A stretch of 64,000 bases of DNA from an uncultured Bifidobacterium sp. (lineage in GTDB: Bacteria; Verrucomicrobiota; Verrucomicrobiia; Limisphaerales; JADLHS01), in the NCBI GenBank assembly GCA_964539515.1, contig CAZIJO010000003.1:21490-85489 (forward strand), written 5' to 3'. This document shows positions 2,875-41,279 of the stretch, in pieces; the stretch's first letter is position 1; every line of letters begins with the position of its first letter. The notes under the pieces are model-generated. The model saw only the letters and a program-made list of their open reading frames with translations, had not been told where the DNA came from and did no database searches. A program made the position numbers and the translations under genes.

Positions 2875-2937
2875 TTCATCACCTGGGAACAAGGCCCGGC
2901 AGGAGTTCCTTTTGGAAACGGAGCCCTTGCCGGCCTT

Positions 2938-3216: not shown

Positions 3217-3247
3217 GTCTGCTTGATGCCAGAAGGCGCGCGATGGG

Positions 3248-22394: not shown

Positions 22395-22508
22395 CAAAGT
22401 CCAAGAACTGAAGTCGGAAGTCTGACGCCCAAAGTCTAAAGTCAATTGTCTGCCGTGGCGTGGTCAGGTTTGGGACTTTAGGCTTCAGACTTTAGCCTTT
22501 AGCCTTTA
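22395..22508. repeat. heptamer-periodic inverted repeat (AAAGTC / GACTTT)
   Basis: caaagtc caagaac tgaagtc ggaagtc tgacgcc caaagtc taaagtc versus gacttta ggcttca gacttta gccttta gccttta. Confidence 0.75.
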
Positions 22509-22973
22509 AATAACGAAGTCGAGGGCGCTGGCGGGGGTCAGTTCGAGTTTGCGCGCGCGCTCGGCCAGATCGGCCAGCGTGACCCGCTCCATGATGGCAA
22601 CGATGGCGTCGCGCGTGTCCTTCATCACGCTCCGGATGGCGCAGCGGGATTCGTCGGGGCAGGAGCATTTCTCGTAAAAGTTCTCACTCACGCAGCTGAT
22701 CGGTGCGAGTGCACCCTCAATGTGGCGGACAATTTCCGCCAGGTTGATTTTATCGGGCCGCCGCCGCAGGCGATAACCACCCGCCACCCCGCGCTTGCTC
22801 TCAACCAAGTGGGCGGATTTGAGATCGTTGAGGATCTGTTCCAGGAAACGTTTCGGAATGTTCTGCTTCCGCGAGATTTCCTGAATGCGCACCACGGAGT
22901 CATCCTCCTGAAAGTCACGCGCCAGAACCAACAGCGCTCGTAGCGCGTATTCCCCACGAACGGATAGTTTCAT
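22506..22973 (-). CDS. Rrf2 family transcriptional regulator (CymR/IscR-like)
   Basis: MKLSVRGEYALRALL, IPKRFLEQIL, SKRGVAGGYRL; four Cys in C-x8-C-x-C-x5-C; C-terminus LDFVI; divergent from the sulfur operon. Confidence 0.93.
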   Translation of the reverse strand: MKLSVRGEYALRALLVLARDFQEDDSVVRIQEISRKQNIPKRFLEQILNDLKSAHLVESKRGVAGGYRLRRRPDKINLAEIVRHIEGALAPISCVSENFYEKCSCPDESRCAIRSVMKDTRDAIVAIMERVTLADLAERARKLELTPASALDFVI

Positions 22974-23067: not shown

Positions 23068-23093
23068 ATTGACTTAGTAGAGATTAAGTCTAT
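23068..23093 (+). promoter_or_regulatory. candidate Rrf2 operator overlapping a TTGACT -35-like hexamer
   Basis: ATTGACTTA-GTAGAGAT-TAAGTCTAT dyad in the AT-rich divergent intergenic region; the core GTAGAGATT recurs inverted at 22988-22996. Confidence 0.55.
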
Positions 23094-23121
23094 TCTGGTC
23101 GCGTTGTTACGAAAAATAGGT

Positions 23122-23310
23122 ATGAAAACAATCGAAAATTCAGCCAAAACACCAGTGGTGGCGAACCAGGAAACCTGGCTTGAAACGGTGCGTGCCCAAG
23201 TCGCTTCGTTGCGCTTTGGCGTTGTGCAGATTGTTGTTCATGATTCCCAGGTCGTACAGATCGAGCGCACCGAGAAAGTAAGGCTCGACCGTAAACCGTT
23301 GGAAGGGTAA
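23122..23310 (+). CDS. YezD/DUF2292 family small protein
   Basis: SLRFGVVQIVVHDSQVVQIERTEKVRL signature. Confidence 0.9.
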   Translation: MKTIENSAKTPVVANQETWLETVRAQVASLRFGVVQIVVHDSQVVQIERTEKVRLDRKPLEG

Positions 23311-23339: not shown

Positions 23340-25073
23340 ATGAGGAGAATCGCGAAAACAATCCTGTTTGGTTGGAACATGCCAGTCATGGTTTTAGCTG
23401 GCCTGTTGTCACCAGTTGGGGGGAAAGCCCAACCGGTATCTTCGAACACCGTTCCGGCTGCCACGCCCTCCTCCCAAGCGGTCCCTGCTGCCAACGGAGT
23501 TTCTCCGAGCCAGCCAGAACAATCGGAGCTGATCAAAGAACTGCTCGGTCGCTTGGAGCGGCTTGAAAACAAGGAGGCGGAGCAAAAGCAGCGGACCGAA
23601 GCCGCCGAGAAGGCACACCAGGAAGAGGTGCAGAAACTCCTCGGGCGCATCGGTGAACTCGAGGGCAAGGTCGGCTCCCTTGAGTCGGGCAAGGTCCTGC
23701 CCGAGATCGCGGTTTCCCCAAAGGATGGGCCGACAACGCAGGAGCTGGATCAGAAACTTCGGGTGATGGCGCGCAACGAGGAGCTGGCGGCAGAAGCCGC
23801 CGAGGCGCAAGCCGCCGCGCGCGCGAAGGAAACGCCGCGAATCACGGCCGGGGCGAATGGATTCGCCATCAGTTCGGCGGACACGAACTATGTGTTGAAG
23901 CTACGGGGTTTGGTGCAGGTGGATTCGCGTTCCTTTTTTGACGACAATCAATACCTCGAAGGCAATGATGGTTTTTATTTGCGGCGCGCCCGGCCCATTT
24001 TCGAGGGCACGCTCTTTCGTGATTTCGATTTCAATTTGACGCCCGATTTCGGCGGCAACAACGTCCAAATCTTTGATGCCTGGATGAATTACCGTTACCG
24101 GCCCGAGTTGCAGTTGAAGGCCGGAAAGTTCAAGAGCCCGGTCGGATTTGAAATGTTGCAATCCGTCGGCATGCTGCCGTTTAACGAGCGTTCGTTGGTC
24201 AGCAATTTTGTGCCGGCACGAACCCTCGGCCTCCAAATCTGGGGAGACATTGCCGGTGGAGCGGTAAGTTATGCCGCCGGGGTTTTTGATGGCTCCGGGG
24301 ATGCGCGAGTTGCGAGCAACAGCGATATCGATGATGCCAAGGAATTCGCGGGACGGCTTGGGTTTCAACCATTCAAGCAAAGCGCCACCACCATGCTGAC
24401 GGGACTTCGCTTGGGCGCGGGCGGGAGCTTCACCCAGGTGCGTTCCAATACCGCCAGCTTGCCGAACACGACGGGCGGAACTTTGCCCGGTTATGTGACC
24501 TCCGCCTTGCAACAATTCTTTGCCTACAATCCGGCGATCGGGACCGTATATGCCGACGGGGTTCACTGGCGGATTTCCCCCTATGCGGCCTACACCCTGG
24601 GACCATTTGGGCTGTTGGGGGAATACATCGTTGCCCAGCAGGGCGTGGTAAACAGTGTGACCGGGGCGCGCGAGGATTTGTTGGATTCGGCCTGGCAGCT
24701 TTCTGCGCAATGGGTGTTGACGGGTGAAGATGCCTCCTTCACTGGCATCGCGCCGAAGTCGCCATTTGATCCGCGGGCTGGAAAATGGGGAGCCTGGCAG
24801 CTCGTGGCCCGCTTTGCCCAGGCGGATCTTGATTCAGATGCTTTCCCCGTTTTCTCCGATCCCACGCTTTCGGCGCATTCGGCCATGAGTTGGGGAATTG
24901 GGCTGAACTGGTGGCTGAACCGGAATGTCCGGGTGCTTACGAGTTATTCCAGAACCTGGTTTGGCGGCGGGGGCGAGGTGAATCCGGTGTTCATCGGCAC
25001 CCACGTGCCCCCGGCCACGGTTACGCACCAGGACGAAAGCGTATTCATGACCCGGCTCCAGCTTGCGTTTTAA
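23340..25073 (+). CDS. OprO/OprP-family anion-selective porin with N-terminal coiled coil
   Basis: LRGLVQVD, FYLRRARPIFEG, DAWMNYRY, KAGKFKSPVGFE, ERSLV; ends LQLAF (beta-signal Phe). Confidence 0.88.
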   Translation: MRRIAKTILFGWNMPVMVLAGLLSPVGGKAQPVSSNTVPAATPSSQAVPAANGVSPSQPEQSELIKELLGRLERLENKEAEQKQRTEAAEKAHQEEVQKLLGRIGELEGKVGSLESGKVLPEIAVSPKDGPTTQELDQKLRVMARNEELAAEAAEAQAAARAKETPRITAGANGFAISSADTNYVLKLRGLVQVDSRSFFDDNQYLEGNDGFYLRRARPIFEGTLFRDFDFNLTPDFGGNNVQIFDAWMNYRYRPELQLKAGKFKSPVGFEMLQSVGMLPFNERSLVSNFVPARTLGLQIWGDIAGGAVSYAAGVFDGSGDARVASNSDIDDAKEFAGRLGFQPFKQSATTMLTGLRLGAGGSFTQVRSNTASLPNTTGGTLPGYVTSALQQFFAYNPAIGTVYADGVHWRISPYAAYTLGPFGLLGEYIVAQQGVVNSVTGAREDLLDSAWQLSAQWVLTGEDASFTGIAPKSPFDPRAGKWGAWQLVARFAQADLDSDAFPVFSDPTLSAHSAMSWGIGLNWWLNRNVRVLTSYSRTWFGGGGEVNPVFIGTHVPPATVTHQDESVFMTRLQLAF

Positions 25074-25108
25074 GTCCCTGACCTATGAAAGGAATCAATC
25101 AAGTGCAA

Positions 25109-26107
25109 ATGACCAAACTCATCACCCTTTTGGTAGCCGCTTTGGCGGCCTTGGGCTCGGGAGCGGGCGTAAATGCCAAGGACTTCAAGCTCCTCAACGT
25201 CTCCTATGACCCCACGCGCGAGCTCTACACGGAGTACAACGCCGCCTTCGCGAAGTTTTGGAAGGAAAAGACCGGTGACACCGTGAAGATTGATCAATCC
25301 CACGGCGGCTCGGGCAAACAGGCGCGCTCGGTGATGGAAGGACTCTCCGCCGATGTCGTCACCCTCGCGCTGGCTTACGACGTGGACGTCATTGCGGAGA
25401 AGGCGAGACTGTTCCCGGCCACGTGGCAAAAGCGATTGCCCGGCAATAGTGCGCCCTACACCTCGACGATCGTATTCCTGGTGCGCAAAGGGAATCCCAA
25501 AGGCATCAAAGATTGGAACGACCTCGTCAAGCCGGGCGTGGCGATTATTCCGGCCAATCCCAAAACCTCCGGGGCGGCCCGGTGGACGTATCTGGCGGCG
25601 TGGGGCTACGTGTTGAAAAACGGCGGGGACGAGGTGAAGGCGAAAGAATTTGTGGCAAAATTCTACAAGAACGTGCCTGTGCTCGATACCGGCGCGCGGG
25701 GAGCGACCACCACCTTCATCCAGCGCGAAATCGGCGATGTGCTTGTGGGCTGGGAGAACGAGGCGTTCCTTGCGCTCAAGGAATACGGGGCGGACAAATT
25801 CGAAATCGTTGTTCCGTCCGTCAGCATTCTGGCGGAGCCGCCGGTGACGGTCGTGGACAAGGTGGCGAAGAAAAAGGGCACCGAAGCCGTTGCCACGGCA
25901 TATCTCGAATATCTTTACTCGGATGAGGGCCAGGAAATTGCCGGACGGAACTTTTATCGTCCGCGTTCCGAAAAGGCGGCAGCGAAGTACGCCAGCCAAT
26001 TCACCAAGGTCAGTCTGTTCACGATTGATGAAGTGTTCGGTGGCTGGCAGAAGGCGCACAAGGCGCACTTTGCGGACGGCGGCTCCTTTGATCAGATCCA
26101 ACGCTGA
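25109..26107 (+). CDS. sbp: sulfate ABC transporter substrate-binding protein
   Basis: [54 protein letters not shown]-type motif, [11 protein letters not shown]. Confidence 0.95.
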
Positions 26108-26141: not shown

Positions 26142-27155
26142 ATGAACGTCACCGTTGCCGCAAAACGATTCGCGCTCGGAGCAATGGCCCTTGCTGCGGT
26201 GTCGTTGGCCGCGGCGGCGGAGACGAAGCTCTTGAATGCCTCATTCGACATTTCGCGTGAATTGTTCCAGCGCTACAACGAAGCCTTTGTGCGCCACTGG
26301 CAACAGGCAGGGGGCGCGAGCGTGGCGGTGAATCAGTCGCACGCCGGTTCTTCCAAGCAGGCGCGCGCGGTGATTGATGGCCTGGAGGCCGATGTGGTCA
26401 CTTTCAACCAGGTCACGGATGTGGAAGCGGTGGCCGAGCGTGGTCTGATCGCCCGCGACTGGCGCAAGCTGTTGCCGCATCAAAGTTCGCCTTTCAGCTC
26501 CACGATCGTGTTTCTGGTGCGCCAGGGAAACCCCAAGGGCATCAAGGACTGGAGCGACCTGGTGCAGCCCGGCATCTCGGTGATCGTGCCCAATCCGAAA
26601 ACCTCGGGCAACGGCCGTTACAGTTATTTGGCGGCGTGGGGATACGCGCTGAAGCAATCCGCCGGTGACGAGGCGAAGGCCCGCGAGTTTGTGGGGAAAC
26701 TGTTCGCGAACGTTCCCGTCCTCGACACCGGCGGTCGCGGTGCCACCACGACATTCGCCCAGCGCGAAATCGGCGATGTGCTGCTGACCTTCGAGGCGGA
26801 GGTGTATTTGACGGTGAAGGAATTTGGCGCGGGGAAATTCGAGGCGGTCGTGCCTTCGTGCAGTATTGAGGCCGACATGCCCGTGGCCGTAGTCCAAAAG
26901 GTGGTTGGCAAGCGCGGCACGGAGCAACTCGCACGCGCTTATCTCGAACACCTTTATTCGGACGAAGGGCAGGGGATCATTGCGGCCAATTATTATCGGC
27001 CCCGATCGCAAAAGGTTGCCGGGCAATACGCCGCCCAGTTCGGCAAGCTGGAGTTGTTCTCCGTCGAGAAAGTCTTTGGTGATTGGGCCAGCGCGCAAAA
27101 GACGCATTTCAGCGAGGGCGGCGTGTTCGACCAACTCTACAAAAAATCCAAGTGA
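26142..27155 (+). CDS. cysP: thiosulfate/sulfate ABC transporter substrate-binding protein (CysP-like)
   Basis: SFDISRELF, QSHAGSSKQAR, DVVTFNQVTDV and SGNGRYSYL match CysP rather than Sbp. Confidence 0.85.
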   Translation: MNVTVAAKRFALGAMALAAVSLAAAAETKLLNASFDISRELFQRYNEAFVRHWQQAGGASVAVNQSHAGSSKQARAVIDGLEADVVTFNQVTDVEAVAERGLIARDWRKLLPHQSSPFSSTIVFLVRQGNPKGIKDWSDLVQPGISVIVPNPKTSGNGRYSYLAAWGYALKQSAGDEAKAREFVGKLFANVPVLDTGGRGATTTFAQREIGDVLLTFEAEVYLTVKEFGAGKFEAVVPSCSIEADMPVAVVQKVVGKRGTEQLARAYLEHLYSDEGQGIIAANYYRPRSQKVAGQYAAQFGKLELFSVEKVFGDWASAQKTHFSEGGVFDQLYKKSK

Positions 27156-28846: not shown

Positions 28847-29671
28847 ATGAAAACCACTGCGCTTGCCCCCGCCATCCGTGCCGGATTCAACCTGCGCGAG
28901 CGTCCCACGCTGGCCGATCTGTTGGCGCCCCTGGATCAACTCGCTGCCAAGTCGTCCAATCTGCTTGCCCGGCCCCTTGGGCAGTTTGAGCGCGATGGCC
29001 ACAGTTACGCGATGCCACGCTACATTTTCGTCGGCCCGCAAGGCGGGGATGTGCCGATTCCCGTCGGCATTTTCGCCGGCATCTATGGGGATGAACCGGA
29101 AGGAACACGCGCATTGGTGAAGTTCGCCCAATTGCTCGAAGCGCATCCCGAACTTGCCGCCGGGTATGTCCTGTTCCTCTATCCGGCTTGCAATCCCACC
29201 GGGCTCGCGGCGGGCACGGCGTTTTCCAGCCGCGGCAAGGACCTGAATCTTGAACTTGTGAAGATCTCTCACGAACCCGAGGCGCGCTGGTTGCAAAGTG
29301 AACTCGCGTCGCAACACCTGGAAGGCATCATCAAGCTGCACACCAAGGCCGGGAGCAATACCTTCTACGGGCTGGTTCGGGGCGAGACCCTTGCGCGCCA
29401 ACTGCTGGATCCCGCGCTGGCCGCCGCCGCGGAATTGTTGCCGGTGGCGGAGGACTCAGGCATCGAGGCGTTTCGCGCGCGGGATGTTTCCTACGACCAC
29501 TATGAAGGTGGATCGCCGACGGCGCCAGAAGCTCCGACGCGTCCGTTCGAGGTCATTCTCGAAACGCCCGGGCAGGTTCCGGCTTATCTTCGCGAATGGG
29601 CCTTCGTGCTGGCGCTACGTTCCATTCTGACCGAGTACCGGAAATTCCTCGCCTACGCTCCCAACCTTTGA
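28847..29671 (+). CDS. M14-family paralog, partly degenerate
   Basis: IYGDE (H>Y), DLNL (R>L); LHTK and ILETP retained; ends AYAPNL. Confidence 0.82.
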
Positions 29672-29697: not shown

Positions 29698-30663
29698 ATG
29701 CCTCGCATCTACAACAACATCACGGAAACGATCGGCAATACGCCGCTCGTGCGCTTGAATCGCACTGCGCAAAACCATGGCGCGGTCGCCGAGGTCCTGC
29801 TCAAACTGGAATTCTTCAATCCGCTGTCCAGCGTGAAGGACCGTATCGGGGTGGCGATGATTGATGACGCCCTGCAAACCGGGAAGATCAACCCGAGCAC
29901 GGTGCTCATCGAACCCACGAGCGGCAACACCGGCATCGCGCTCGCCTTCGTGGCGGCGGCCCGGGGACTGAAGTTGATTCTCACCATGCCCGAAACCATG
30001 AGCCTCGAACGCCGCAAGCTGCTCAAGATTCTTGGCGCAAAATTGGTCCTGACCGAGGGCCCAAAAGGGATGAAAGGCGCCATCGCCAAGGCCGAGGAAT
30101 TGCGCCAGCAGATTCCGAACAGCGTCATTCTTCAGCAGTTCTCCAATCCGTCGAACCCGGCGATTCATCGCAAGACCACGGCGGAGGAAATCTGGCGCGA
30201 CACGGACGGCAAAGTTGACTTTGTTGTCGCGGGTGTTGGAACGGGTGGGACGATCACCGGCGTGGCCGAAGTCATCAAGTCGCGCAAGCCTGCTTTCAAG
30301 GCAATCGCGGTTGAGCCGGTCAAATCGCCGGTCATTTCGGGCGGCCAGCCCGGCCCGCACAAGCTGCAGGGCATCGGCGCGGGTTTCATTCCGGACAATC
30401 TAAACGTGAAGATCGTGGACGAGGTCATCAAGGTGGATGAAGCCGAATCCGGCCCGGTGTCGAAGGAGATCAACCGCCTCGACGGGATTCCCGTTGGCAT
30501 TTCGAGCGGCGCCATTGTTTGGGCGGCGTTGCAAGTGGCAAAGCGCCCGGAGAACTTAGGCAAGCAGATTGTCGCCATCGTGCCGTCCGCCTCGGAACGT
30601 TATCTGTCATCGTGGCTGTTTGCCGACATTGATACGGAGAGCGACAAGCTCGATTTCGTCTAG
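29698..30663 (+). CDS. cysK: cysteine synthase A (O-acetylserine sulfhydrylase)
   Basis: [15 protein letters not shown] (PLP Lys), [41 protein letters not shown]. Confidence 0.96.
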
Positions 30664-30685
30664 CCCGTCACTCATTGATGTTCTC

Positions 30686-30931
30686 ATGACCCGCGCCAAC
30701 AACAACGGCTCCCTTTGGACCCCGCACGCCTGGGCGACCACGCCGGCGGCGGCTGGCTTATGGAACGGCTGGTTGACGGTCGCTGTGGATCTAGTCTGGC
30801 CCACCCCGCCCGGGGAGGTCGTTACAAACTTGAAACCCAAAATTTCAAGAGCTCACCGGACCACCGGAAGTTCTTCGAGGAAGAACAGGAAACCCGGTGA
30901 AGGTCCGCATCCAGTTGCTGCCGGCGAGTAA
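30686..30931 (+). CDS. putative small Trp-rich ORF (81 aa) or structured leader
   Basis: ATG 30686 to TAA 30931, co-directional within the operon gap; five Trp within the first 37 aa; overlaps several hairpins. Confidence 0.35.
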   Translation: MTRANNNGSLWTPHAWATTPAAAGLWNGWLTVAVDLVWPTPPGEVVTNLKPKISRAHRTTGSSSRKNRKPGEGPHPVAAGE

Positions 30932-31062
30932 GCGCTCGCTGATCCTCAGCCTGATTCGTTCCCGCCTTCGGTTGACACCGCTGGCTGCGGTGTCGTCGCG
31001 CCCGTGCGCGGTTGTTTCCCGTGTTTGACCTCATTGAGCACAGAAAACCAAACACAGTGAAA

Positions 31063-32049
31063 ATGAAATCAAATCAAAACCTGAAACCCATCCGCAGCGT
31101 CGCTGCGGTGGTGGGTGGTTTTGCCTGGTTCACCGGGGCGGCGTTCGCAGCGCCATTCCTGTACAGCTCGGGTGATCTCGTGCTGGCGTTCCGCCAGACC
31201 GGATCGGCGAGTGATTACGCCGTGAACATCGGCAAGGCTACCAACTATAACAACCTGCCGGGAGGTTCAACCTTCGCGGTTACCAACTTGTCCGTCTCCC
31301 AACTCGGTGCCGCTTTTCCGAGTGTGAACGAATTGAAGTGGTCCGTGGCGGGCGCCATTCGCACGGCGGGCAATCCAACCTATCCCATCCAGACCCTCTG
31401 GGTGAGCCGGCCCCGCGTGGATGCCGGCACGCCCAGCGCGCCCTGGTTGCGGCGCAGCACTTCGACCCAGGGCACCGCCGGCGCGCAGATTGACGCCGTC
31501 GGAGTGCGCGCTGCCAACGGCAGCAGTTTCCTCGCAGCCGGACCCAACAACACTGTGACCGGAGTCGTCTTGCCCGTGGCCAGCGACTTCAATCTCGGTC
31601 AAGTCATTGGCACGTTCGGTAATTATGACAACACGTTTCAGGGAAATGTGGAGAATCTCACCGCCGCTGATTTTGACGGTGCGCCTGAAAACGTTTCCCG
31701 CTCGGACTTGTATGAACTGTTGCCGGGCAACAGCGCGTTAAATCTGCCGGGACGCTTCCTGGGCTTCTTTGAACTGAAGCCCAACGGCGCGTTGACCTTC
31801 ACGGCGGCCTCCACGGTACTGCCGGCGCCGACAATCACCAGCATCACCCGCACCGGCGATGTCACCACCGTCTCCTTCACGACGGTTTCCGGCGGAACGT
31901 ATCGGTTACGGGCTACTAATGCAGCGGGATTGACCACGCCCGTCTCGACCTGGACCACTGGCAATTCCCTTGCGGGCACGGGCGGAGTGTTGTCGCTCAC
32001 GGACACCAATTCCGCCGACATCCGCTTCTTTGCGGTGGATGTGCAATAA
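31063..32049 (+). CDS. secreted Ser/Thr/Gly-rich protein with Verrucomicrobia-type C-terminal Ig-like domain; no Cys or Met after the start
   Basis: Signal peptide ending AFA-A; GDLVLAFR N-terminus; C-terminal PTITSITRTG...YRL...W...TDTN...RFFAV domain. Confidence 0.85.
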   Translation: MKSNQNLKPIRSVAAVVGGFAWFTGAAFAAPFLYSSGDLVLAFRQTGSASDYAVNIGKATNYNNLPGGSTFAVTNLSVSQLGAAFPSVNELKWSVAGAIRTAGNPTYPIQTLWVSRPRVDAGTPSAPWLRRSTSTQGTAGAQIDAVGVRAANGSSFLAAGPNNTVTGVVLPVASDFNLGQVIGTFGNYDNTFQGNVENLTAADFDGAPENVSRSDLYELLPGNSALNLPGRFLGFFELKPNGALTFTAASTVLPAPTITSITRTGDVTTVSFTTVSGGTYRLRATNAAGLTTPVSTWTTGNSLAGTGGVLSLTDTNSADIRFFAVDVQ

Positions 32050-32126
32050 CCTGAACCGAACTAAACAACTGAAAACGGAATTATCCCTATTTGAAATCGA
32101 AAACTTGAACCTTTGAGAGACTGATT

Positions 32127-33203
32127 ATGAAAACGACAAACTTACTGATAATTGCGGCGGGCGCGGTGCTCGCTGTCACCAGCGCGCAGGCGCAGGTGGA
32201 AATCAACATCTCCGGCGCGGTGGCCTTTCGTGATACGTCCTATCGTGCCATCCGGGCGCTCTATGGAGCAAATCTCGCGTCGGAGAATAACCTCACCCCG
32301 CCGCCCTCTTCACTAAAGGTGACGTGGACGGGGCAGATCACGAACTTGTTCGGCAATCAAACTGTCACCATCCGCACGTTCTACAACGGGGCCAACGCCG
32401 GCATCCAGGACCTGGTGCAGAATCGTAACGTCAACTACCTGGCGTCTTCGACCCCGGGAGGCACCTCCACGGTGAATCTCCAGTCGGACCTGGCGTATTC
32501 CTCGGTATTCCAGGCATCCACGCCATATACCTCGCCCGCCCTGGAAGATGTGCGCTTTGGTCTCACGCCGGTCTTTTTCGTCAAGAGCACCAGTGCTCCG
32601 GCGGGATTGACCAACATCACCGTGCAACAATTCCGCACGCTGGCAGCCAACGGTTCCGTTCCCGGTTGGTTTCTGACCGGCAACACCAATGATACCGCAC
32701 CCATCTACTACGTCAGCCGCGACCCGAGTGCTGGTCAGCGGACGATCATCGAACGCGAACAGGGATTCTACGGCAACGCGATCTTCTACAACTGGAACCC
32801 TGCTACGACCCAGTTCGATCCTGATCCCACCGGGCGCACGTCCACGCAGATTCGCGACCTGCTGAACATCTCCGGCCCGGCAGTCAGTTATTTGACCGGA
32901 GTGGACGCGGTGAACGTCAATGGCGGGGCCAATATCCTGGCTTTGAATGGCTTTCGGCCGGTGTTGAATCCTTACAACTCCGTCAGCAACAATCACGCGC
33001 CGGTCATCAACGGCCAATACACGCAGTGGGGCTATGAGCACATCTTCATTCGGACCACCGCATCGGCCAACCTCCGCAACTTCCGTAATGCGCTGATTGC
33101 GAAGATTGATGAGGACCTGCAAACCTCCGCTTACTCAATTCCGCTGAGTCGCGCCCGGGTCGAGCGCTCGGCGCAAGGTGGCCCGGTCTCGCCCCTTGAT
33201 TAA
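32127..33203 (+). CDS. secreted PstS-like (PBP-fold) solute-binding protein; no Cys or Met after the start
   Basis: Signal peptide ending AQA-Q; ISGAVAFR, GANAGIQ, VSRDPSAGQR and YTQWGYEH resemble PBP/PstS-fold motifs. Confidence 0.65.
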   Translation: MKTTNLLIIAAGAVLAVTSAQAQVEINISGAVAFRDTSYRAIRALYGANLASENNLTPPPSSLKVTWTGQITNLFGNQTVTIRTFYNGANAGIQDLVQNRNVNYLASSTPGGTSTVNLQSDLAYSSVFQASTPYTSPALEDVRFGLTPVFFVKSTSAPAGLTNITVQQFRTLAANGSVPGWFLTGNTNDTAPIYYVSRDPSAGQRTIIEREQGFYGNAIFYNWNPATTQFDPDPTGRTSTQIRDLLNISGPAVSYLTGVDAVNVNGGANILALNGFRPVLNPYNSVSNNHAPVINGQYTQWGYEHIFIRTTASANLRNFRNALIAKIDEDLQTSAYSIPLSRARVERSAQGGPVSPLD

Positions 33204-33269
33204 GTAATACTCGTTGCCGCCGGCGCGGGTCCCTGGCCCGCGCCGGCTTCTGCCCGAGCGACCATACGA

Positions 33270-35768
33270 ATGGAGCCATCTTCAAGATTCAATCGAATGC
33301 CGGGTCTGCAAACCGGAGTTCTGATTATGACCGCCCTGCTCATCGCCGCCCGCTTCAGCGGAACAATGGCGCTGGCGCAGTCCACCAATGCGCCGATCGT
33401 TCCCAGCTATCAGGTCGCGCGCTATGAACTCGATAGTCCGGTGCTCACTCCGGCGGACGTGGAACGGTTGACGGCCGACGCAACCGGTGATGCCGTGACC
33501 GTGGCGGAAATCCGGCGCGCCCTGAACCGATTGCAAACCGCCTTGCGCGAGCGCGGCTATCGACAGGCGGCATTGACGTTGCCACAGCAAGCGCTCACCA
33601 ATGGCGTGGTGCGCGTGCGGGTGTGGGAAGGTCCGGCGCCGGGCCAGGCCGCGCCGGCGGCGACCCCGCCGGTGGAACTGCCGGCGTTGGCTGCGCCGGC
33701 CTACGACATCCGCCACTTTGAAATTCACGGCAACACCAAGCTTTCGCCGGAGGCGATCGACCGCATTCTCGGTCCGGCGGCCGGGCCGTCGGCCAATCTT
33801 GATGCGTTGCGCGAAGCGCTGGTGAAACTGCGTGACGCTTACCGCGAGCGCCGCCTGCCGCTGGCCACGGTCACCGTTCCGGAACAATTGCTGACCGATG
33901 GCACGATTGTCATCCAGGTGAACGAGGGTTGGGATCCCGAGGCGGAAGCGCTCGCCAAAGCACAAACCGTGACGCCAACCAATGTTCCAGCCACTCCCCC
34001 CGAGCGCACGTTTGAGGTGCGTCGTTATGAAGTGCTGGGCAACACGTTGCTCGCCCCGGCTGCAATTGATGCCATCGTCACCAATGGCGTTGGCACGAAC
34101 GTCACGTTCACGCAGGTGCGGAAGGTTCTCGGGGATCTGCAACTCGCCTATCGCGAGCGCGGTTTTGCCAGCGCCAGCGTAGCGCTGCCGCCCCAGCAAC
34201 TCACCAACGCCACCATCAAAATCCAAGTCACCGAAGGCGTGCTCGTGGATGCGCGCGTGACCGGCAATCGCTATTTCAGTTCCAACAACGTCATGCGCGC
34301 TTTGCCGTCGGTGGCCAACGCGCTCATCTGGAAGGACGAGGTAATCAACAGTCGCGTGTTGCAGCGTGAACTGGACCTCGCGAATCAGAACCGGGACCGG
34401 CAGATTTATCCGGTCCTCAATCCCGGCCCCGACCCGGGCACGACCGCCTTGGATTTGCGGGTGAAGGACCGCTTGCCCTTGCACGGGCGATTGGAGCTCA
34501 ACAATCAATCGACCCCCGGCACGCCGGACTGGCGGCTCAACGCCTCTGCTAATTACAACAACCTCTGGCAACGGGAGCACGCTGTTGGCATTTTCTATGG
34601 ATTCACCCCCGAGGAGTTCAAAGTCCCGCAGCCAGACCCGGATTACTTTTTCAACCGGCCGCTCGTGGCGAACTTCGGCGCTTATTACCGCATTCCGTTT
34701 GGCGAGCCGCAATCGGTGCAGGAGATCATCAGCGGCAACCGCAACTTTGGCTTTGACGAGGCGACCAAGCAGTTCCGCCTGCCGCCACCGGGCAGCCGGC
34801 CGGACCTGACATTCTCCGTCAGTGGTTCTTCCAGCGACACTGGTGTCAATTACGGCCCGACCACCGTGGTTTCCCAGACGCCGTTGCTGACGATTCTCTC
34901 CCGGGACAGCGGCCAGGATTTGAACTTAAATCAAAGCGCTGGCTACAACCTCAATCTGCCGCGCGCTTTGAGTGACACCCGCCGCCTCAACTTCTCCCTC
35001 GGCATGGACTGGAAGCGCAGCGAGAAGGAGAGTTACAACACGAACAACTTTCTGATCATTACCGTCATCACCAATTCCCAAGGGTCGCAGATTATTACCA
35101 GCGAGGTGTCGTCGCCACAGCCCCCGCGCAAGACCGAGGTCAACTATCTGCCGCTTAACTTCGGGTTCAGTTTCGCGGATGCAAGTCCGAAAGCCACCTT
35201 GTTTGCCAGCGTGGTCTTGAGCGCCAATTTTCTGGGCAACGACTCTGATTTTGTTGCCGCCTCGTACACCCCTGAAGCGCAGGCGGAATATGCGAAGGCC
35301 GTCTTTGCGCTGAGCTACGATCGCAAAGTGTTCAACGACTGGTCGCTGTTGTGGCGACTCAATGGGCAGGCGGCGACGGGACCGTTGATCAACAACGAAC
35401 AATTTGCCGTCGGCGGCATCAACAGCGTGCGGGGCTATTATGAGGGCGATGAGTACGGAGACGTCGGTTGGTTTACCAGTGCGGAGCTGCGCACGCCATA
35501 CCTTGCCACTGAAGCCGGAGTGGTGGATGGCTTCACGCCGGTTTGGTTGCGGGGTTCGATATTTCTCGACGCCGGCCAGCCGATCTATCTCGACGATGTT
35601 CCTTGGGTCGCGCCGGACCGCTTTCTCTGGAGCACGGGTTTTGGCCTCTCAGCAAACATCAACAACCACTTTGACGCGAAAGTTGCAGTCGGTTGGCCGC
35701 TGGCCGACTCCGCCAACACCCAGGCTTATCAACCGCGCGTGCTCTTCTCATTGGGAGGACAGTTTTGA
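33270..35768 (+). CDS. ShlB/FhaC/HecB-family two-partner-secretion outer-membrane transporter (TpsB)
   Basis: Repeated POTRA motifs (YRERG...LPxQ.LT.G...I.V.EG), PGPDPGTT, conserved VRGY loop; ends LGGQF. Confidence 0.92.
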   Translation: MEPSSRFNRMPGLQTGVLIMTALLIAARFSGTMALAQSTNAPIVPSYQVARYELDSPVLTPADVERLTADATGDAVTVAEIRRALNRLQTALRERGYRQAALTLPQQALTNGVVRVRVWEGPAPGQAAPAATPPVELPALAAPAYDIRHFEIHGNTKLSPEAIDRILGPAAGPSANLDALREALVKLRDAYRERRLPLATVTVPEQLLTDGTIVIQVNEGWDPEAEALAKAQTVTPTNVPATPPERTFEVRRYEVLGNTLLAPAAIDAIVTNGVGTNVTFTQVRKVLGDLQLAYRERGFASASVALPPQQLTNATIKIQVTEGVLVDARVTGNRYFSSNNVMRALPSVANALIWKDEVINSRVLQRELDLANQNRDRQIYPVLNPGPDPGTTALDLRVKDRLPLHGRLELNNQSTPGTPDWRLNASANYNNLWQREHAVGIFYGFTPEEFKVPQPDPDYFFNRPLVANFGAYYRIPFGEPQSVQEIISGNRNFGFDEATKQFRLPPPGSRPDLTFSVSGSSSDTGVNYGPTTVVSQTPLLTILSRDSGQDLNLNQSAGYNLNLPRALSDTRRLNFSLGMDWKRSEKESYNTNNFLIITVITNSQGSQIITSEVSSPQPPRKTEVNYLPLNFGFSFADASPKATLFASVVLSANFLGNDSDFVAASYTPEAQAEYAKAVFALSYDRKVFNDWSLLWRLNGQAATGPLINNEQFAVGGINSVRGYYEGDEYGDVGWFTSAELRTPYLATEAGVVDGFTPVWLRGSIFLDAGQPIYLDDVPWVAPDRFLWSTGFGLSANINNHFDAKVAVGWPLADSANTQAYQPRVLFSLGGQF

Positions 35769-38700
35769 ATGAAGACTATTGAGCCAAAAAATTTGAAGGA
35801 CGCTCGCCCTCACCCCGTCCCTCTCCCTCGGGGAGAGGGAGGGCCAATCAGCGTCAACGAAAGCTCCGGTCGTCTTGGTTGCATCCGCCGCCAAATAATT
35901 CGTCAAGGTGGGTCTCATCAGCAAACTGGTGATGTTTCAAATGGCAAGACGCGGCGAGAATTTCTCCCTCTCCTGGGGGAGAGGGCCGGGGTAAGGGCGG
36001 GTGTTGTCACAAATCTCATACGAGTCTTCTCGGTTACGGTGGCGTTCCTGATCACCACAAACGTGTTGGCCAACCCGAATGGTCTCAGCGTTCAGAGCGG
36101 CAATGCCAGCGTCACTGTCAACGGCAACCAATACCACATCACGGCGTCGCACAATGCCATCCTCAACTGGCAGTCCTTCAACATCGCTGCGGGCGAAACC
36201 ACCCGTTTCATTCAACCCTCGGCATCCTCCGTTGTTTGGAATCGCATCCACGACGCCAGTCCATCGCAAATTTACGGCAATCTTGCCGCCAACGGGGTAG
36301 TGGTGTTGATGAACCAGAACGGCTTTTACTTCGGGCCGAATTCGTTCGTGAGCGCGGCGGGGCTGATTGTTTCCACCGCGCCGTTTGTGCCGGCGGAAAG
36401 TGGCGGCGGATTGTTCTGGCAATTCACCGGTCCAGCACCTGGGGCAAGCATCATCAACTACGGTCAGTTTAGCGTGGGGCAGGGCGGCTCAGCGTTTCTG
36501 ATTGCCGAAACCATCGAGAATCACGGTAGTATCACCGCGCCCGGCGGCAGCATCGGCCTGATCGCCGGACAGGAAATCTTGCTGAGTGAACGGCCCGATG
36601 GGCGCGGCTTGAGCGCTTCGGTCACGCTGCCCACGGGGGCGGTCAACAACTCCGGCGATCTGATTGCGGATGCCGGCACGATTGCCCTGAACGCGCGTGT
36701 GGTGAACCAGCATGGATTGGTGCAGGCCAACTCGATTCGCGAGCGCAACGGCATCATCGAATTGATTGCCTCGGATTCGCTCACCCTCGGGCAAGACTCC
36801 ATTGTTTCTGCCAGTGGAGATTCGGTTGGTGTGAGCGCCGGCGGCGCGATTGTCATCAAGTCCGCCGGCACATTCGCGGACGAGACTGGTTCTCAGATTG
36901 AAGTCCGGGGTGGGTCGCTGGGCGGTGACGGAGGCTTCGCGGAAGTCTCCGCGCCGCTCATGGATTCCATCGAGTCGCAAATTGATGGCCGTGCGGCTGT
37001 CGGTTATCGCGGCGGACGATTGCTGATTGATCCGCAGGACATCGTGATCGGTTTCAGCGGTGGCACCCTTGGTTCGGGCACGGTAGGAGCGAATGATCCG
37101 CCCGTCCCCGGCACGCTCAACCTCGACGTGAACTCGTCGTTCCTGGGCTTCTCTCAAATTATACTGCAAGCCACGCGCAACATCACCCTGGCATCGGGGG
37201 TCACCTGGGATCTCGTCGCCAGTACCGGCCTCAGCGAACCCGGCAGCCTCTTGAAACTTGAGGCCGGCAACAACATCACGCTTTCCAGCGGCGCGAGCAT
37301 TCTCGCCGGTGAGAACTGGTCGGTGACTTTGCAGGCCGGGCGTGACTTTTCACTGGCGGACTCAGTGATTGCCGGCACCGGCAACATTCTGTTCTCGGGG
37401 ACAGGTTCGTTGCAGGCGCAAAATGGAAACATCAGTTTGCTGGCGGGCAACAACCTCAGCGTGGGCAGCGGCCACGTGCGGACAATTGGCGGCGGCCGCA
37501 TCAGTGCCCATGCGGTGGGCGGCAGCATCAACACCGGCACGAAGGCGAACGGTTTTATCTTTGTGCCCACCGGTTCGGGCTACAACGTGAGCGCCGACCT
37601 CGGCGGCATCAGCACGGCCAGCGGTGGCGATGTGTCGCTGACGGCCGGATTGGATGTGTTGAGCTATCTTCCGATCGCGGGCGGGGTGCAAACTGACGCC
37701 GGCAGCGGCGCTTTCGGTGCGGCCCCTGGCAACGTGACCATTACTGCCGGTCGGGATGTTGGCGGGCATTTTGTCGTGCGCAATGGTGTGGGCAGTATCA
37801 CTGCCGGCCGCAACGCCGGCCTCGCCACGCGTCTGCTTGCGCTGAGTCTGGTGAGCGGTGGCTGGACGGTCAACGCCGCCAACGACATTCTGCTGCAGGA
37901 GGTGCGCAATCCGAACGGGGTGTTCAACAATCTCGGATCGAGCACCTCGCCCAATCGGCATCGCTTCGACTACGCCGCCAATGCCTACACGATCTTGAAC
38001 GGCGGTCACTCCGTGCAATTGCGCGGGACGGCGCTGCCGCGTTATCTCGACGTCTTTTCGCAAGGCATTCCGGCGATTTATCCCGGGCTGCTTGAAATCA
38101 CCGCCGGTGCGGGCGGTGTGGTCCTTGGCAACGATGTCATTCTGTTTCCCGCGCCCAACGGCAACCTCAGCATCGCCACCACGGACGGCGGTTCGCTCTT
38201 TGGCACGCGCGCCGGCGATCTCACCCAGCTGGTCTTTTCCGACAGTGGCAAGACGCAGTATCGGGCATTCGGTGATTTCGGGATCGCGGATCGCTCGGGC
38301 AACCTGCTGCACCTGAACGACCCGGTGCCGGTCACACTGGACATTGCGGGCGACATGGACGGCATTCTGCTGGGCGTGCCCAAACGCGCGGAGATCAGCA
38401 TTGGCGGCAACATGGTCAACAGCCGGTTCGACGGGCAGAATCTTCGCGCCACGGATGAAACCCGCATCACGGTTGCGGGCAACATCATCAATCGAAACGA
38501 ATTCACGACGGTCGCCAGTCCGCAGCCGAATTTCCGGTTGTTCGATCCGCTGCTTGATTTGATTTATCCGCCGCTGACCGGTGGCGCTGCCGGTGTTCAA
38601 AACCAGTTCATCTACAATCCGACGACTGGTGAGCTGACGTTCCAGGGCCGCATGACGGGCGAACAGTTGCAGGCGTTGCTGAATCTGACCGTGCGGGCCT

Positions 38701-40025
38701 TCGATGCCGATGGGATTCCGTTGTATCAACCAAACGGTGAACCGGTCACCGTGACGGCGGAATTCGCGAGTGCCGCCGTGCTTCAGCAACTTTACAACAA
38801 CAGCCAGGACGTGCCGCTCAACCCCGACACCGGTTATCGTATCGGCGGCGGTGGCAGATTCACCCTCCGGGCCAACAACCTCGACCTGGGCGCGACGGTT
38901 GGCATCGTGTCCCAGGGCCCGCGCGCCAATGCCCGACTGGCAAACCTTTTCACGGAGGGCGCGGACATCAATGTATTCCTGACCGGCAACCTCGACATGT
39001 TTTCCACCAAGATTGCGTCGCTGAATGGCGGTGAGATCAATGTATATGCGGACGGCCATGTCAGCGTCGGTTCGCGCACCTTCACGACGAGTGGCCAGGC
39101 GGCCCGCGGCATTTTTACGGTGGACGAGAGCGACATCACCGTCATCGCGCGTGGCGACATCAACGTGAACGGCTCGCGCATTGCGGCCTACGACGGCGGC
39201 CATGTGCTGGTGCGGTCGCTGGAAGGGGATGTGGACGCGGGCACGGGCGGGGGAGGCGCGGCGACCGTGGAGAAGATTTACGTGGACCCGGTCACCCGGG
39301 CCATTCAGACTTACGCACCGACGATACCCGGCAGCGGCATTCTGGCGACCACCTTTCCGCCATCGCAGGATTCTGCATTTCCCCGTTCGCTCAACACTGT
39401 GGGGGACATTGTCGTCGAAACGCCCCAAGGCAACATCATCGCGAGTTCGGGCGGCATTGTGCAGATCCCGCTCAACGGCGTGGGCAGCAGCCTCGGCACG
39501 GTCACGCTGCGCGCGGGAACGCAGGATGAGCGCGGCAATGTGATTTATCGCGGCAACATTGACGCGAGCGGTTCGGGCGTCATTGGCAGCACGGTGAAGT
39601 TGGAAGCGAGTGGCGACATCAAGGGGTTGGTCTTTGCGCGGGACAACCTGGACATTGAGGCCAATCAGAGCGTGAACGTAACCGCCCTGGCCGTGGGCAG
39701 CGCCAACGTCAGCGCCGGTGACACCATCTCGGGAACGATCATTGGCGTCGGCAGTGTCAACGCCAGCGGGTCGAGCGTGGATGCGTCGCTGCTGTCCCAG
39801 AACGTGACCGCCAGCGGCGACGTGACTTCTTCGCAGGTTGGCTTTGCCCAGGCCAACGTGGCGGCAACCACCAGCCAGGGTTTGCAGTCGGACGACAGCG
39901 CGAAAGAAGCTGCCGCCGGTGAAAAGCAGGACGAGGAAGACGAGTTGAAGAAGAATCGTCCCGGCCCGCGTATCGCCAAAACCACCGGCCGCGTCACGGT
40001 GATTCTGCCCGAGAAAAAATCCTGA
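35769..40025 (+). CDS. filamentous-haemagglutinin-like exoprotein (TpsA)
   Basis: ANPNG after the signal peptide; TPS domain ILNWQSFNI...NRI...SQIYG.L.ANG.V.LMNQNG; Gly/Ser/Asn-rich beta-helix repeats; starts 1 nt after the tpsB stop. Confidence 0.92.
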   Translation: MKTIEPKNLKDARPHPVPLPRGEGGPISVNESSGRLGCIRRQIIRQGGSHQQTGDVSNGKTRREFLPLLGERAGVRAGVVTNLIRVFSVTVAFLITTNVLANPNGLSVQSGNASVTVNGNQYHITASHNAILNWQSFNIAAGETTRFIQPSASSVVWNRIHDASPSQIYGNLAANGVVVLMNQNGFYFGPNSFVSAAGLIVSTAPFVPAESGGGLFWQFTGPAPGASIINYGQFSVGQGGSAFLIAETIENHGSITAPGGSIGLIAGQEILLSERPDGRGLSASVTLPTGAVNNSGDLIADAGTIALNARVVNQHGLVQANSIRERNGIIELIASDSLTLGQDSIVSASGDSVGVSAGGAIVIKSAGTFADETGSQIEVRGGSLGGDGGFAEVSAPLMDSIESQIDGRAAVGYRGGRLLIDPQDIVIGFSGGTLGSGTVGANDPPVPGTLNLDVNSSFLGFSQIILQATRNITLASGVTWDLVASTGLSEPGSLLKLEAGNNITLSSGASILAGENWSVTLQAGRDFSLADSVIAGTGNILFSGTGSLQAQNGNISLLAGNNLSVGSGHVRTIGGGRISAHAVGGSINTGTKANGFIFVPTGSGYNVSADLGGISTASGGDVSLTAGLDVLSYLPIAGGVQTDAGSGAFGAAPGNVTITAGRDVGGHFVVRNGVGSITAGRNAGLATRLLALSLVSGGWTVNAANDILLQEVRNPNGVFNNLGSSTSPNRHRFDYAANAYTILNGGHSVQLRGTALPRYLDVFSQGIPAIYPGLLEITAGAGGVVLGNDVILFPAPNGNLSIATTDGGSLFGTRAGDLTQLVFSDSGKTQYRAFGDFGIADRSGNLLHLNDPVPVTLDIAGDMDGILLGVPKRAEISIGGNMVNSRFDGQNLRATDETRITVAGNIINRNEFTTVASPQPNFRLFDPLLDLIYPPLTGGAAGVQNQFIYNPTTGELTFQGRMTGEQLQALLNLTVRAFDADGIPLYQPNGEPVTVTAEFASAAVLQQLYNNSQDVPLNPDTGYRIGGGGRFTLRANNLDLGATVGIVSQGPRANARLANLFTEGADINVFLTGNLDMFSTKIASLNGGEINVYADGHVSVGSRTFTTSGQAARGIFTVDESDITVIARGDINVNGSRIAAYDGGHVLVRSLEGDVDAGTGGGGAATVEKIYVDPVTRAIQTYAPTIPGSGILATTFPPSQDSAFPRSLNTVGDIVVETPQGNIIASSGGIVQIPLNGVGSSLGTVTLRAGTQDERGNVIYRGNIDASGSGVIGSTVKLEASGDIKGLVFARDNLDIEANQSVNVTALAVGSANVSAGDTISGTIIGVGSVNASGSSVDASLLSQNVTASGDVTSSQVGFAQANVAATTSQGLQSDDSAKEAAAGEKQDEEDELKKNRPGPRIAKTTGRVTVILPEKKS
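35805..35999. mobile_element. 195-bp MITE/REP-like element inserted in frame in the tpsA 5' end
   Basis: 37-nt inverted units cgccctcaccccgtccctctccctcggggagagggag and its near reverse complement ending ...cggggtaagggcg; length is exactly 65 codons. Confidence 0.8.
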
Positions 40026-40869: not shown

Positions 40870-41279
40870 GAAAGTGCTCCAAGAGCTTGCATCAGTCGCT
40901 GACGGAGCTGAATATCACTCCGTTGCTCGATCTCGCGTTCGTGTTGCTGGTGATTTTCATCATCACCACAACCCCCATTGTGAACGATCTGGATTTGAAC
41001 CTGCCGACGGCATCGAAGAAGCAAAAGGATTCACCGCCCAAAGCGAACTACGTGACGGTGGACGCGGCGGGCACGATTCACCTGAACAAGCAGCAGGTCA
41101 CACTCGAAGGATTGCTCTCGGAACTCATCCAGTTGCGCGTGGACGACCCGGATTTGAGTGTCATTGTCCGCGGTGACAGCAAGACGAAGTACCGGCACAT
41201 CGTGACCGTGATGGATGCCCTGCAACAGGCCAACGTCGTGAAAGTGGATCTGGCCACCGAGCCGAACGGAAAGAACTGA
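40866..41279 (+). CDS. exbD: biopolymer transporter ExbD
   Basis: ELNITPLLDLAFVLLVIFIITTP, IVRGD, VMDAL. Confidence 0.93.
   Translation: MRKCSKSLHQSLTELNITPLLDLAFVLLVIFIITTTPIVNDLDLNLPTASKKQKDSPPKANYVTVDAAGTIHLNKQQVTLEGLLSELIQLRVDDPDLSVIVRGDSKTKYRHIVTVMDALQQANVVKVDLATEPNGKN

Follow-up and report, generated by a model that had tools for sequence, protein, structure and literature searches.

Exported proteins without methionine or cysteine in a sulfur-assimilation locus of uncultured Verrucomicrobiota

A stretch of 64,000 nucleotides (nt) from an uncultured soil/freshwater, Limisphaerales-type member of the Verrucomicrobiota (contig CAZIJO010000003.1, positions 21,490 to 85,489; hereafter the window) encodes two consecutive exported proteins whose mature forms contain not one sulfur atom. 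These proteins, here designated A (328 amino acids (aa), 31063..32049) and B (358 aa, 32127..33203), are encoded on the + strand. We consider it likely that both belong to a sulfur-assimilation regulon of such bacteria, and that selection has removed methionine (Met) and cysteine (Cys) from them because they are made, probably abundantly, when sulfur is scarce. Membership in the regulon follows from their position between cysK and cysTWA, from synteny with sbp, cysK, and Rrf2-family regulator genes, and from an upstream leader that they have in common with sbp and porin genes. We infer that sulfur limitation induces A and B, and how strongly they are depleted, together with a hairpin just past the B stop codon, suggests that they may be abundant. 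A preliminary description of the window had proposed sulfur sparing; this interpretation is supported by the conservation of the sulfur-free state among orthologues, by the ordinary sulfur content of the paralogous, superfamily, and exported controls, and by the leader common to A and sbp genes.

Retranslation of both reading frames gave no internal Met and no Cys in either protein, in agreement with the preliminary count for the 328-aa and 358-aa proteins. Both carry Sec signal peptides of ordinary type, with AFA before and AP after the cleavage site in A, and AQA and QV in B. The counts given earlier for other proteins of the locus also hold: TpsB lacks Cys and has 5 internal Met, 3 of which fall within its first 36 residues, TpsA has 6 Met and a sole Cys at residue 37, in an N-terminal extension before the signal peptide, and Sbp1 has 1 Met outside its signal peptide. 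Six further exported proteins, whose genes flank the locus within the same window, served as a reference in their mature form. Met and Cys together make up 3.05% of these and 3.4% of all flank proteins, versus 0 of the 635 mature residues of A and B. The probability of finding no sulfur in 635 residues is 3e-9 at the exported-flank rate, 4e-8 at the rate of a sister clade termed B' (2.64%), and 2e-5 at that of the B superfamily (1.7%); it stays as low as 6e-4 if the already depleted remainder of the locus (1.17%) sets the rate. The preliminary observation holds and, if anything, understates the case.

The absence of sulfur is a conserved trait. The closest 120 homologues each of A and B (53% to 89% identity), all from Verrucomicrobiota metagenome bins, were aligned and trimmed at the signal-peptide cleavage site. 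In the mature A homologues, 36,083 residues include 3 Met and 1 Cys; in the mature B homologues, 40,513 residues include 8 Met and 1 Cys. The mature protein is fully sulfur-free in 117 of the 120 A homologues and in 112 of the 120 B homologues. The leftover Met and Cys of the whole homologous open reading frames (ORFs) fall in signal peptides or in mis-called N-terminal extensions. Since the sulfur-free state has been kept despite large sequence turnover, only purifying selection against Met and Cys explains this pattern. The trait also recurs at greater distance. A deeper lineage, in which the B-like protein is 25% to 27% identical to B and the gene order is Rrf2-Sbp-(CysK/AstE)-B-A-TpsB-TpsA-ExbB-ExbD, again has sulfur-free A-like and B-like proteins. 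In a further lineage (L156, with the order Rrf2-DUF2292-porin-A-B-TpsBA-ExbBD-TonB), A is sulfur-free and the sole extra Met of B lies in the signal peptide. Versions of A and B in a sulfur context are therefore sulfur-free in three divergent lineages: the window clade, L156, and the clade at 25% to 27% identity.

Homologues outside this context provide the controls. A search of 1.84 billion cluster representatives with a B-family profile returned 1,093 clusters, and sulfur was counted in the best 150. Only 7 of these 150 are sulfur-free, 4 of them being members of the B clade or fragments of it, and the other 143 are not. Among these best 150, mature superfamily members have 1.1% to 1.4% Met and 0.3% to 0.7% Cys whatever their divergence, with overall values near 1.2% for Met and 0.5% for Cys (about 1.7% in total). 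Because the superfamily keeps ordinary sulfur, neither the fold nor the family accounts for the sulfur-free state.

A closer control comes from a duplication of the entire gene set. In all 30 of the 30 loci examined in species-representative genomes, as far as the contigs reach, A and B are part of a module with the order porin-A-B-TpsB-TpsA-ExbB-ExbD-TonB-ExbD, of which the OprP-type porin and the ExbB-ExbD-TonB set are constant parts. Genes for Rrf2, Sbp, AstE-like proteins, CysK, or CysTWA adjoin the module in most of these loci. Clade B', which is 40% to 43% identical to B, has 1.95% Met and 0.69% Cys (2.64% in total), and none of its 62 members is sulfur-free. In the five places looked up (L151, 8964-20719; L152; L153, 9029-20758; L154; L155), B' belongs to a paralogous copy of the whole module, A'-B'-porin-TpsB-TpsA-ExbB-ExbD-TonB-ExbD. 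In three of the five (L151, L152, and L154) it is adjoined by nifEN, nifB, and the homocitrate synthase gene nifV, but not by cys genes. A regulator gene with HTH_3 and PBP_like domains (ModE-like) lies directly before the module in four of the five (L151, L152, L154, and L155). A TrmO_N gene is found in three of these four regulator-linked places, and a ferritin gene in two of the three nif-linked ones. Judged from these gene neighborhoods, the A'-B' module is probably a molybdate-specific version of the same machine, and we refer to it as the molybdenum-type module. Together, A and B have 0 sulfur residues in 686 aa in the window versus 13 in 692 (L151) and 12 in 667 (L153) for their paralogues, and the Cys content of the eight shared module proteins is 0.05% in the window versus 0.47% and 0.31%, respectively. 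Homologs in non-sulfur contexts and other secreted proteins of the same DNA, the two comparisons that the preliminary description had proposed, are thus not equally sulfur-free. Near the nif genes of L151 there is a match to the Rfam small RNA family Acido-Lenti-1 (196-241; 42.4 bits, above the gathering score), and a search for a molybdenum cofactor riboswitch with Rfam on four molybdenum-type loci returned only Acido-Lenti-1, far from the module.

Depletion reaches well beyond A and B, over about 22 kb from the OprP-like porin gene to cysA (23340-45463). The 18 proteins of this locus contain 9 Cys and 66 Met in 7,070 aa (0.13% and 0.93%), versus 159 Cys and 243 Met in 11,671 aa (1.36% and 2.08%) for the 31 proteins of the flanks (Fisher p = 1e-22 for Cys and 7e-10 for Met). 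The cytoplasmic proteins CysK and CysA, the inner-membrane proteins CysT and ExbB, and TonB are also Cys-free. Across the 30 genome loci of relatives, the Met and Cys contents are 0.41% and 0.08% in the porin, 0.38% and 0.09% in Sbp, 1.30% and 0.09% in CysK, 0.51% and 0.10% in TpsB, 0.52% and 0.16% in TpsA, 2.14% and 0.03% in ExbB, and 0.74% and 0.03% in TonB. There is thus a gradient, from 0% in A and B through about 0.5% in the porin, Sbp, and TpsBA to inner-membrane proteins that are Cys-free only. The Rrf2 regulator is not depleted, either in the window (2 Met, 4 Cys) or in relatives (2.15% Met, 2.47% Cys), as is expected for a low-copy protein that is needed in all conditions.

Three explanations that do not invoke sulfur scarcity have to be set against these data. 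High G+C content (about 60% in the window) could disfavor ATG and TGY codons, and the absence of Met and Cys could then be a product of mutational bias or chance. This is already refuted, since Met reaches 2.08% and Cys 1.36% in flanks whose composition is the same, the P values are 1e-22 and lower, and the trait is conserved across more than 200 homologues. Exported beta-rich proteins might be Cys-free and Met-poor in any case, the zero merely reflecting location and fold; extracellular proteins of Escherichia coli do contain about 46% less sulfur than cytoplasmic ones (PMC2932507), and in the molybdenum-type module TpsA, TpsB, and the porins are sulfur-poor too (Met 0.7% to 1.4%), as A' is to some extent. 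However, that general effect is about two-fold and the one seen here is more than 100-fold, exported proteins of the same window and members of B' with the same fold have ordinary sulfur, and cytoplasmic CysK and CysA and inner-membrane CysT and ExbB are Cys-free as well. We regard this generic economy as very improbable, and the paralogue control has already largely refuted it. Much the same small probability attaches to the idea that Met and Cys, the most oxidation-prone residues, were lost from A and B because these are exported into an oxidizing environment. The paralogues in the molybdenum context share the compartment and the partners of A and B yet keep their Met and Cys, the cytoplasmic enzymes of the locus are depleted as well, and the depleted set coincides with the sulfur-assimilation genes and with the common leader.

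The locus that includes A and B is one long same-strand cluster (+ strand), with the gene for an Rrf2-family regulator (CymR/IscR-like; 22506..22973, - strand; Pfam Rrf2, E 3e-39) diverging from it; an Rrf2 gene adjoins the locus in many relatives. NCBIfam matches of this regulator to IscR and CymR are below the cut-off (CymR equivalog, 84 versus 195 bits). A consensus scan placed a sigma-70-like promoter at 23069..23096 (+ strand; TTGACT-N16-TATTCT, with an embedded GACTTA..TAAGTC inverted repeat), and this box is kept in five related loci (L009, L015, L016, L018, and L030). The first gene of the unit is a small ORF of the DUF2292/YezD family (62 aa, 23122..23310; Pfam PF10055, E 1.5e-16), which in relatives precedes porin or sbp genes. 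A DUF2292/YezD gene also opens the sulfur locus in L009, L016, L018, L024, L027, L030, and L156, and a literature search on this family returned nothing relevant. It is followed by an OprO/OprP-type anion-selective porin with an N-terminal extension of about 190 aa and no Cys (23340..25073; Pfam Porin_O_P, E 5e-32) and by two sulfate/thiosulfate-binding proteins, Sbp1 (25085..26107; NCBIfam NF008022, 524 bits, above the cut-off; no Cys and 1 Met in the mature protein) and Sbp2 (26142..27155, from a chosen start codon; NCBIfam TIGR00971, 461 bits). Three tandem AstE/AspA-like paralogues of the M14-type deacylases come next (27158-27982, 27993-28826, and 28847-29671; Pfam AstE_AspA_cat). The zinc motif HGDE is present in the first of them only, and the second and third, with NGDE and YGDE, may be inactive; it is conceivable that these proteins release Cys or Met from N-acylated compounds. 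The Cys-free cysteine synthase CysK (29698..30663; NCBIfam TIGR01139, 445 bits, above the cut-off) is separated from A by a spacer of 399 nt.

Downstream of B lie the genes for TpsB (33270..35768; no Cys), an Omp85/ShlB-type transporter with polypeptide-transport-associated (POTRA) domains (Pfam POTRA_2, E 1e-41; ShlB; Omp85), and TpsA (35769..40025), an exoprotein with an N-terminal two-partner-secretion (TPS) domain (Pfam TPS, E 3e-24; TIGR01901). These adjacent genes have the gene features of a two-partner (type Vb) secretion system, and Pfam and NCBIfam scans of TpsA gave neither a toxin domain nor any other C-terminal domain. They are followed by ExbB (40057-40869), ExbD (40866-41279), TonB (41284-41967), and a second ExbD (41964-42404), recognized by the Pfam models MotA_ExbB, ExbD, and TonB_2; ExbB, TonB, and the second ExbD have no Cys. 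The cluster ends with a sulfate ATP-binding cassette (ABC) transporter, CysT (42500-43327), CysW (43428-44363), and CysA (44360-45463), identified by two BPD_transp_1 matches and by ABC_tran plus TOBE and named from its context with the Sbp genes; CysT and CysA have no Cys. In locus L030 (8871-17766), the flanks are the nearest to those of the window (94% identity for Rrf2, 89% for Sbp, and 92% for CysK), and A, B, TpsB, and TpsA match only as fragments at 42% to 66% identity. These fragments may stem from frameshift errors in a nanopore assembly, or from replacement or decay of the genes.

A conserved leader precedes A at 30798..31027 (+ strand), as found by sequence comparison across loci. 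Its first element is a hairpin (hairpin 1, 30798-30820) of the form GCC-NN-stem-loop-stem-AGGC. An A/T-rich stretch of some 30 nt separates this hairpin from an invariant core, CTCACCGGACCACCGGAAGTT (30852-30872), for which CCGGTGA (30894-30903) may serve as the 3' partner. The last element, about 40 nt before the start of A, is a GC hairpin that resembles a terminator and has a T-rich tail (30997-31027). A scan of metagenome contigs with a degenerate version of the 21-nt core, CTSACCGGWYCRCCGGVRGTY, gave at least 120 loci, and the core lies upstream of at least 58 sulfur-regulon genes on more than 50 contigs. Among the matches listed, it is located 43 to 54 nt before the start codons of genes for Sbp (15), OprP-like porins (11), a Cys-free family resembling an outer-membrane barrel (VEEGQ; 14), AstE-like proteins (2), and DUF3034 proteins (2), and mostly about 200 to 224 nt before A-like (5) and B-like (9) genes. 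The products encoded behind it are nearly all Cys-free and Met-poor, and they include a 538-aa porin and a 335-aa Sbp without any Met or Cys. Other matches are mostly within coding sequences or are chance matches on unrelated G+C-rich contigs. The core is absent from the molybdenum-type modules examined. Whatever the mechanism, the core connects A/B with sbp and porin genes into a single regulon, and the leader may be a new type of cis-regulatory element that controls sulfur genes.

Hairpin 1 is present at a fixed distance in 34 of 65 instances of the core, compared with 13% of shuffles, and has at least nine complementary stem versions (for example, CCAG/CTGG, CCCC/GGGG, CCGG/CCGG, CCCG/CGGG, CGCC/GGCG, CTCC/GGAG, and CCTC/GAGG); covariation of this type is what an RNA would be expected to show. 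A covariance model built on the core recovered 17 sites in the genome loci at E < 0.01, all keeping CCGG..CCGG, and missed the look-alikes of the core that visual inspection had shown in the window, ahead of the porin start and of cysT. RNAalifold gave no covariation bonus on eight close sequences. The core may be a protein-binding site on RNA or DNA rather than an RNA structure. No Rfam 15 family reached its gathering score anywhere in the window, and only chance-level matches were returned for 30664-31080 at E up to 10. In the leader of A, a small upstream ORF (MKNQIYGSSPDHRRF...) was considered and rejected: the window copy is frame-shifted relative to the other copies although the nucleotides are invariant, and the copy in L019 has no ATG. 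A second element, a GC-rich hairpin (GCCGGCGCGGG..CCCGCGCCGGC; 33219..33247, + strand), was found just past the B stop codon by local folding and comparison. Its best 60-nt local fold has a dG of -34.5 kcal/mol and its stem sequence recurs in most related loci; it is possibly an intra-operon attenuator, or a terminator or stabilizer of the A-B transcript.

Neither A nor B matched any Pfam or NCBIfam model, and structure prediction was informative mainly for B. The AlphaFold model of B (mean predicted local distance difference test (pLDDT) score, 87.6) has PstS structures as its top Foldseek matches (E 2e-12, probability 1.0, target-normalized template modeling score 0.8), followed by ModA and LysR effector domains. 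According to this model, B has the PstS-type class II periplasmic-binding-protein fold, as used for tetrahedral oxyanions. A comparison of the B-family profile with the sequences of the PDB gave one chance-level match and no PstS. In an alignment of the superfamily, general members have the pocket motifs TGSTAFR, SGS, FSDVFQ, and GRxxSGTR, which were matched by motif correspondence, not by significant alignment, to GAGATF, GSSGG, GASDAP, and RRADGSGT of E. coli PstS. In the B clade, the motifs are SGAVAFR, NGANAG, YSSVFQ, and SRDPSAGQR, in which the Arg and Gly of the last loop are retained and the usual hydroxyls and the Asp appear to be replaced; clade B' has GGAVSLK and FAVVFQ. At the position matching the PstS Asp, B has Ser and B' has Val or Ile. 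In PstS, whose phosphate pocket comprises Thr/Ser hydroxyls, Asp56, Arg135, and a Ser-Gly-Thr loop, this Asp allows the acceptance of protonated phosphate, and loss of an acidic residue is expected in binders of fully ionized anions such as sulfate and molybdate, as seen from PstS, Sbp, and ModA. The predicted ligand of B is thus a fully ionized tetrahedral oxyanion, sulfate or thiosulfate. For A, the model (pLDDT 85) consists of an N-terminal domain with a long helix and a C-terminal sandwich resembling immunoglobulin (Ig) and fibronectin type III (FN3) domains; Foldseek gave nothing above noise for this model except Ig/FN3 sandwiches for the C-terminal domain.

If A and B are part of a sulfur-starvation response, the locus could operate as follows. 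Sulfur limitation would switch it on via the adjacent Rrf2 regulator and/or the leader, and the cell would make the anion porin, two Sbp proteins, CysTWA, and CysK with minimal use of sulfur. A and B would be made in large amounts, along with the TpsB/TpsA pair and a private ExbBD-TonB motor, and the hairpin past B would raise A and B above the downstream genes, matching the depletion gradient. B would capture sulfate or thiosulfate outside the cytoplasmic membrane as a high-affinity scavenger upstream of Sbp-CysTWA, with A as its obligate partner, and the captured anion would feed the route through the porin, Sbp, and CysTWA. The TPS pair and the TonB complex would build or energize the outer-membrane end of this capture system, and the A'-B' module would do likewise for molybdate. 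A broader proposal is that B, a partner A with a novel fold, the porin, TpsB/TpsA, and ExbB-ExbD-TonB-ExbD constitute an undescribed modular outer-membrane oxyanion machine with nutrient-specific paralogues (a sulfur-poor one for sulfate, a nif-linked one for molybdate, and perhaps others within the roughly 1,100 clusters of the B superfamily). The sulfur version would be switched by a new structured leader RNA, which might be a riboswitch or a 5' element to which a protein binds and which would define a sulfur regulon in uncultured bacteria of soil and freshwater. We offer this proposal tentatively, as a possibility that the data favor less than they disfavor.

Sparing could also be real in a module that does not handle sulfate. 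The module might serve the use of organic sulfur (sulfonates, sulfate esters, or sulfur-containing peptides) or surface remodeling and attachment during sulfur starvation, and B would then have a ligand other than sulfate. CysTWA is already served by two canonical Sbp proteins of its own for sulfate and thiosulfate, TpsA proteins usually act as adhesins or cytolysins or bind host proteins (PMC5422565), the three AstE-like deacylases hint at the use of N-acylated compounds, and the ligand of B is a prediction. On the other hand, B has the PstS-type fold with the anion-binding loops at conserved positions, an OprP-type anion porin is always in the module, the paralogous module sits with molybdenum-dependent functions, which fits a family of oxyanion-specific variants, and Pfam scans of the window locus gave no sulfatase, sulfonatase, or monooxygenase gene. 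We consider a non-sulfate role unlikely, though clearly less so than either generic economy or oxidation resistance.

Several observations weigh against the sulfate-capture scheme or against parts of the sparing interpretation itself. Alignment of the B family with E. coli PstS by hhalign was not significant (probability 1.5%; the sequence used is identical to that of structure 1IXH), the Asp-to-Ser argument rests on motif correspondence with PstS, and sulfate or thiosulfate as the ligand of B is predicted from a model. The A' paralogues are rather sulfur-poor (0.6% to 1.3%), which makes the contrast weaker for A than for B. In the complete genome OZ260084.1 (L028), an extra A'-B' pair of normal sulfur content (2459-4527; 6 Met and 3 Cys in B', with no TpsBA of its own between) lies only a few kilobases upstream of the sulfur-type module and cys genes; since this pair keeps its sulfur near cys genes, what counts would be membership in the sulfur-type unit, not mere proximity. 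No gene for a TonB-dependent receptor (plug and 22-strand barrel) was found in the window locus or in any module examined, which leaves ExbBD-TonB without its usual energized partner in the module. The arms of the leader core, CCGG-N4-CCGG, never covary, even among the covariance-model matches. Lastly, the 21 sequencing runs containing the sequence are DNA metagenomes, and three RNA-labeled runs contain 11% to 17% of its sequence words; in the latter, depth is 1 to 6 on A and B and much higher on sbp and cysK, but at 85% identity these two genes recruit reads of other taxa.

Sulfur sparing is an established principle: Met- and Cys-free phycocyanin isoforms of Calothrix (Mazel & Marliere 1989), sulfur-poor sulfur-assimilation enzymes of E. 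coli and yeast (Baudouin-Cornu et al. 2001), and sulfur-poor yeast isozymes (Fauchon et al. 2002) are described as cited in PMC2932507. As in those cases, proteins linked to sulfur limitation have lost Met and Cys, with a depletion that here spans a whole assimilation locus, and, as with the phycocyanin and yeast isozyme pairs, a sulfur-replete paralogue (B' in the molybdenum-type module) exists for another condition. Unlike in those cases, no sulfur at all remains in the mature proteins, even between homologues that share as little as about 25% identity, the proteins are exported Verrucomicrobiota proteins without assigned function, and the control is a whole duplicated multi-gene module.

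Parts of the module resemble other nutrient-starvation systems. The pairing of a PstS-fold protein with an anion porin of the same Pfam family in one locus is reminiscent of OprP/OprO and PstS in the Pho regulon. However, B matches no PstS or periplasmic-binding-protein model, appears to lack the usual pocket hydroxyls and Asp, and occurs without PstCAB and always with A, the TPS pair, and ExbBD-TonB. TPS pairs also occur in nutrient acquisition: in the HxuABC system of Haemophilus influenzae, HxuA acts together with a TonB-dependent step, and phosphate starvation induces the Pseudomonas aeruginosa pair PdtAB (PMC5422565). The TpsB/TpsA pair described here has a comparable setting, but no TonB-dependent receptor accompanies it as in HxuABC, the nutrient would be an inorganic oxyanion rather than haem, TpsA has no recognized functional domain, and the module has its own ExbB-ExbD-TonB-ExbD set, A, and B. 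Among regulators, the Rrf2-family protein CymR controls cysteine metabolism in Firmicutes, and the window likewise has a divergent Rrf2-family regulator beside cys genes, with CysK in the locus. It differs from the CymR system in its score below the equivalog cut-off, in that no CymR-type operator was identified, and in having a leader motif that is G+C-rich and at a fixed distance from start codons.

Within the literature covered, we found no description of the A and B families, of the porin-A-B-TpsBA-ExbBD-TonB module and its paralogues, or of the leader, and a search on Verrucomicrobia, TPS, and sulfur returned nothing relevant; the sparing principle itself is textbook knowledge, and both the module and the leader seem to be new to the literature. 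Evidence for sparing usually comes from statistics over entire proteomes, whereas here sparing takes the form of an all-or-none signature with a duplicated machine as internal control. Composition alone thereby becomes a usable predictor of when a protein of unassigned function is expressed, and it provides a physiological context for two large families of hypothetical proteins, of which B alone has about 1,100 clusters of relatives. To our knowledge, little is understood of the ways in which Gram-negative bacteria concentrate inorganic anions at their outer membrane when these are scarce. The module couples a putative binding protein and an anion porin with two-partner secretion and a TonB motor, and the use of TonB without a classical receptor would be new, if true. 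The leader motif may represent a new regulatory RNA, and it could be used to map which genes make up the sulfur regulon in uncultured Verrucomicrobiota.

Other sulfur-poor proteins were noted in related sulfur loci or behind the leader motif (L004, 3158-4159 and 4279-5577; L111; L150; L134; L034; and 13 others). They include DUF3034 proteins of 333 to 341 aa with 0 to 1 Met and no Cys, and a Cys_Met_Meta_PP enzyme of 432 aa with 1 Met and no Cys. The motif also precedes a partial TonB-dependent receptor (718 aa, 1 Met, no Cys) on L134, an unrelated contig. A further Cys-free family, unannotated and about 545 aa long, with the start ..AVEEGQLVKKEGKWEYY.., resembles an outer-membrane barrel by eye.

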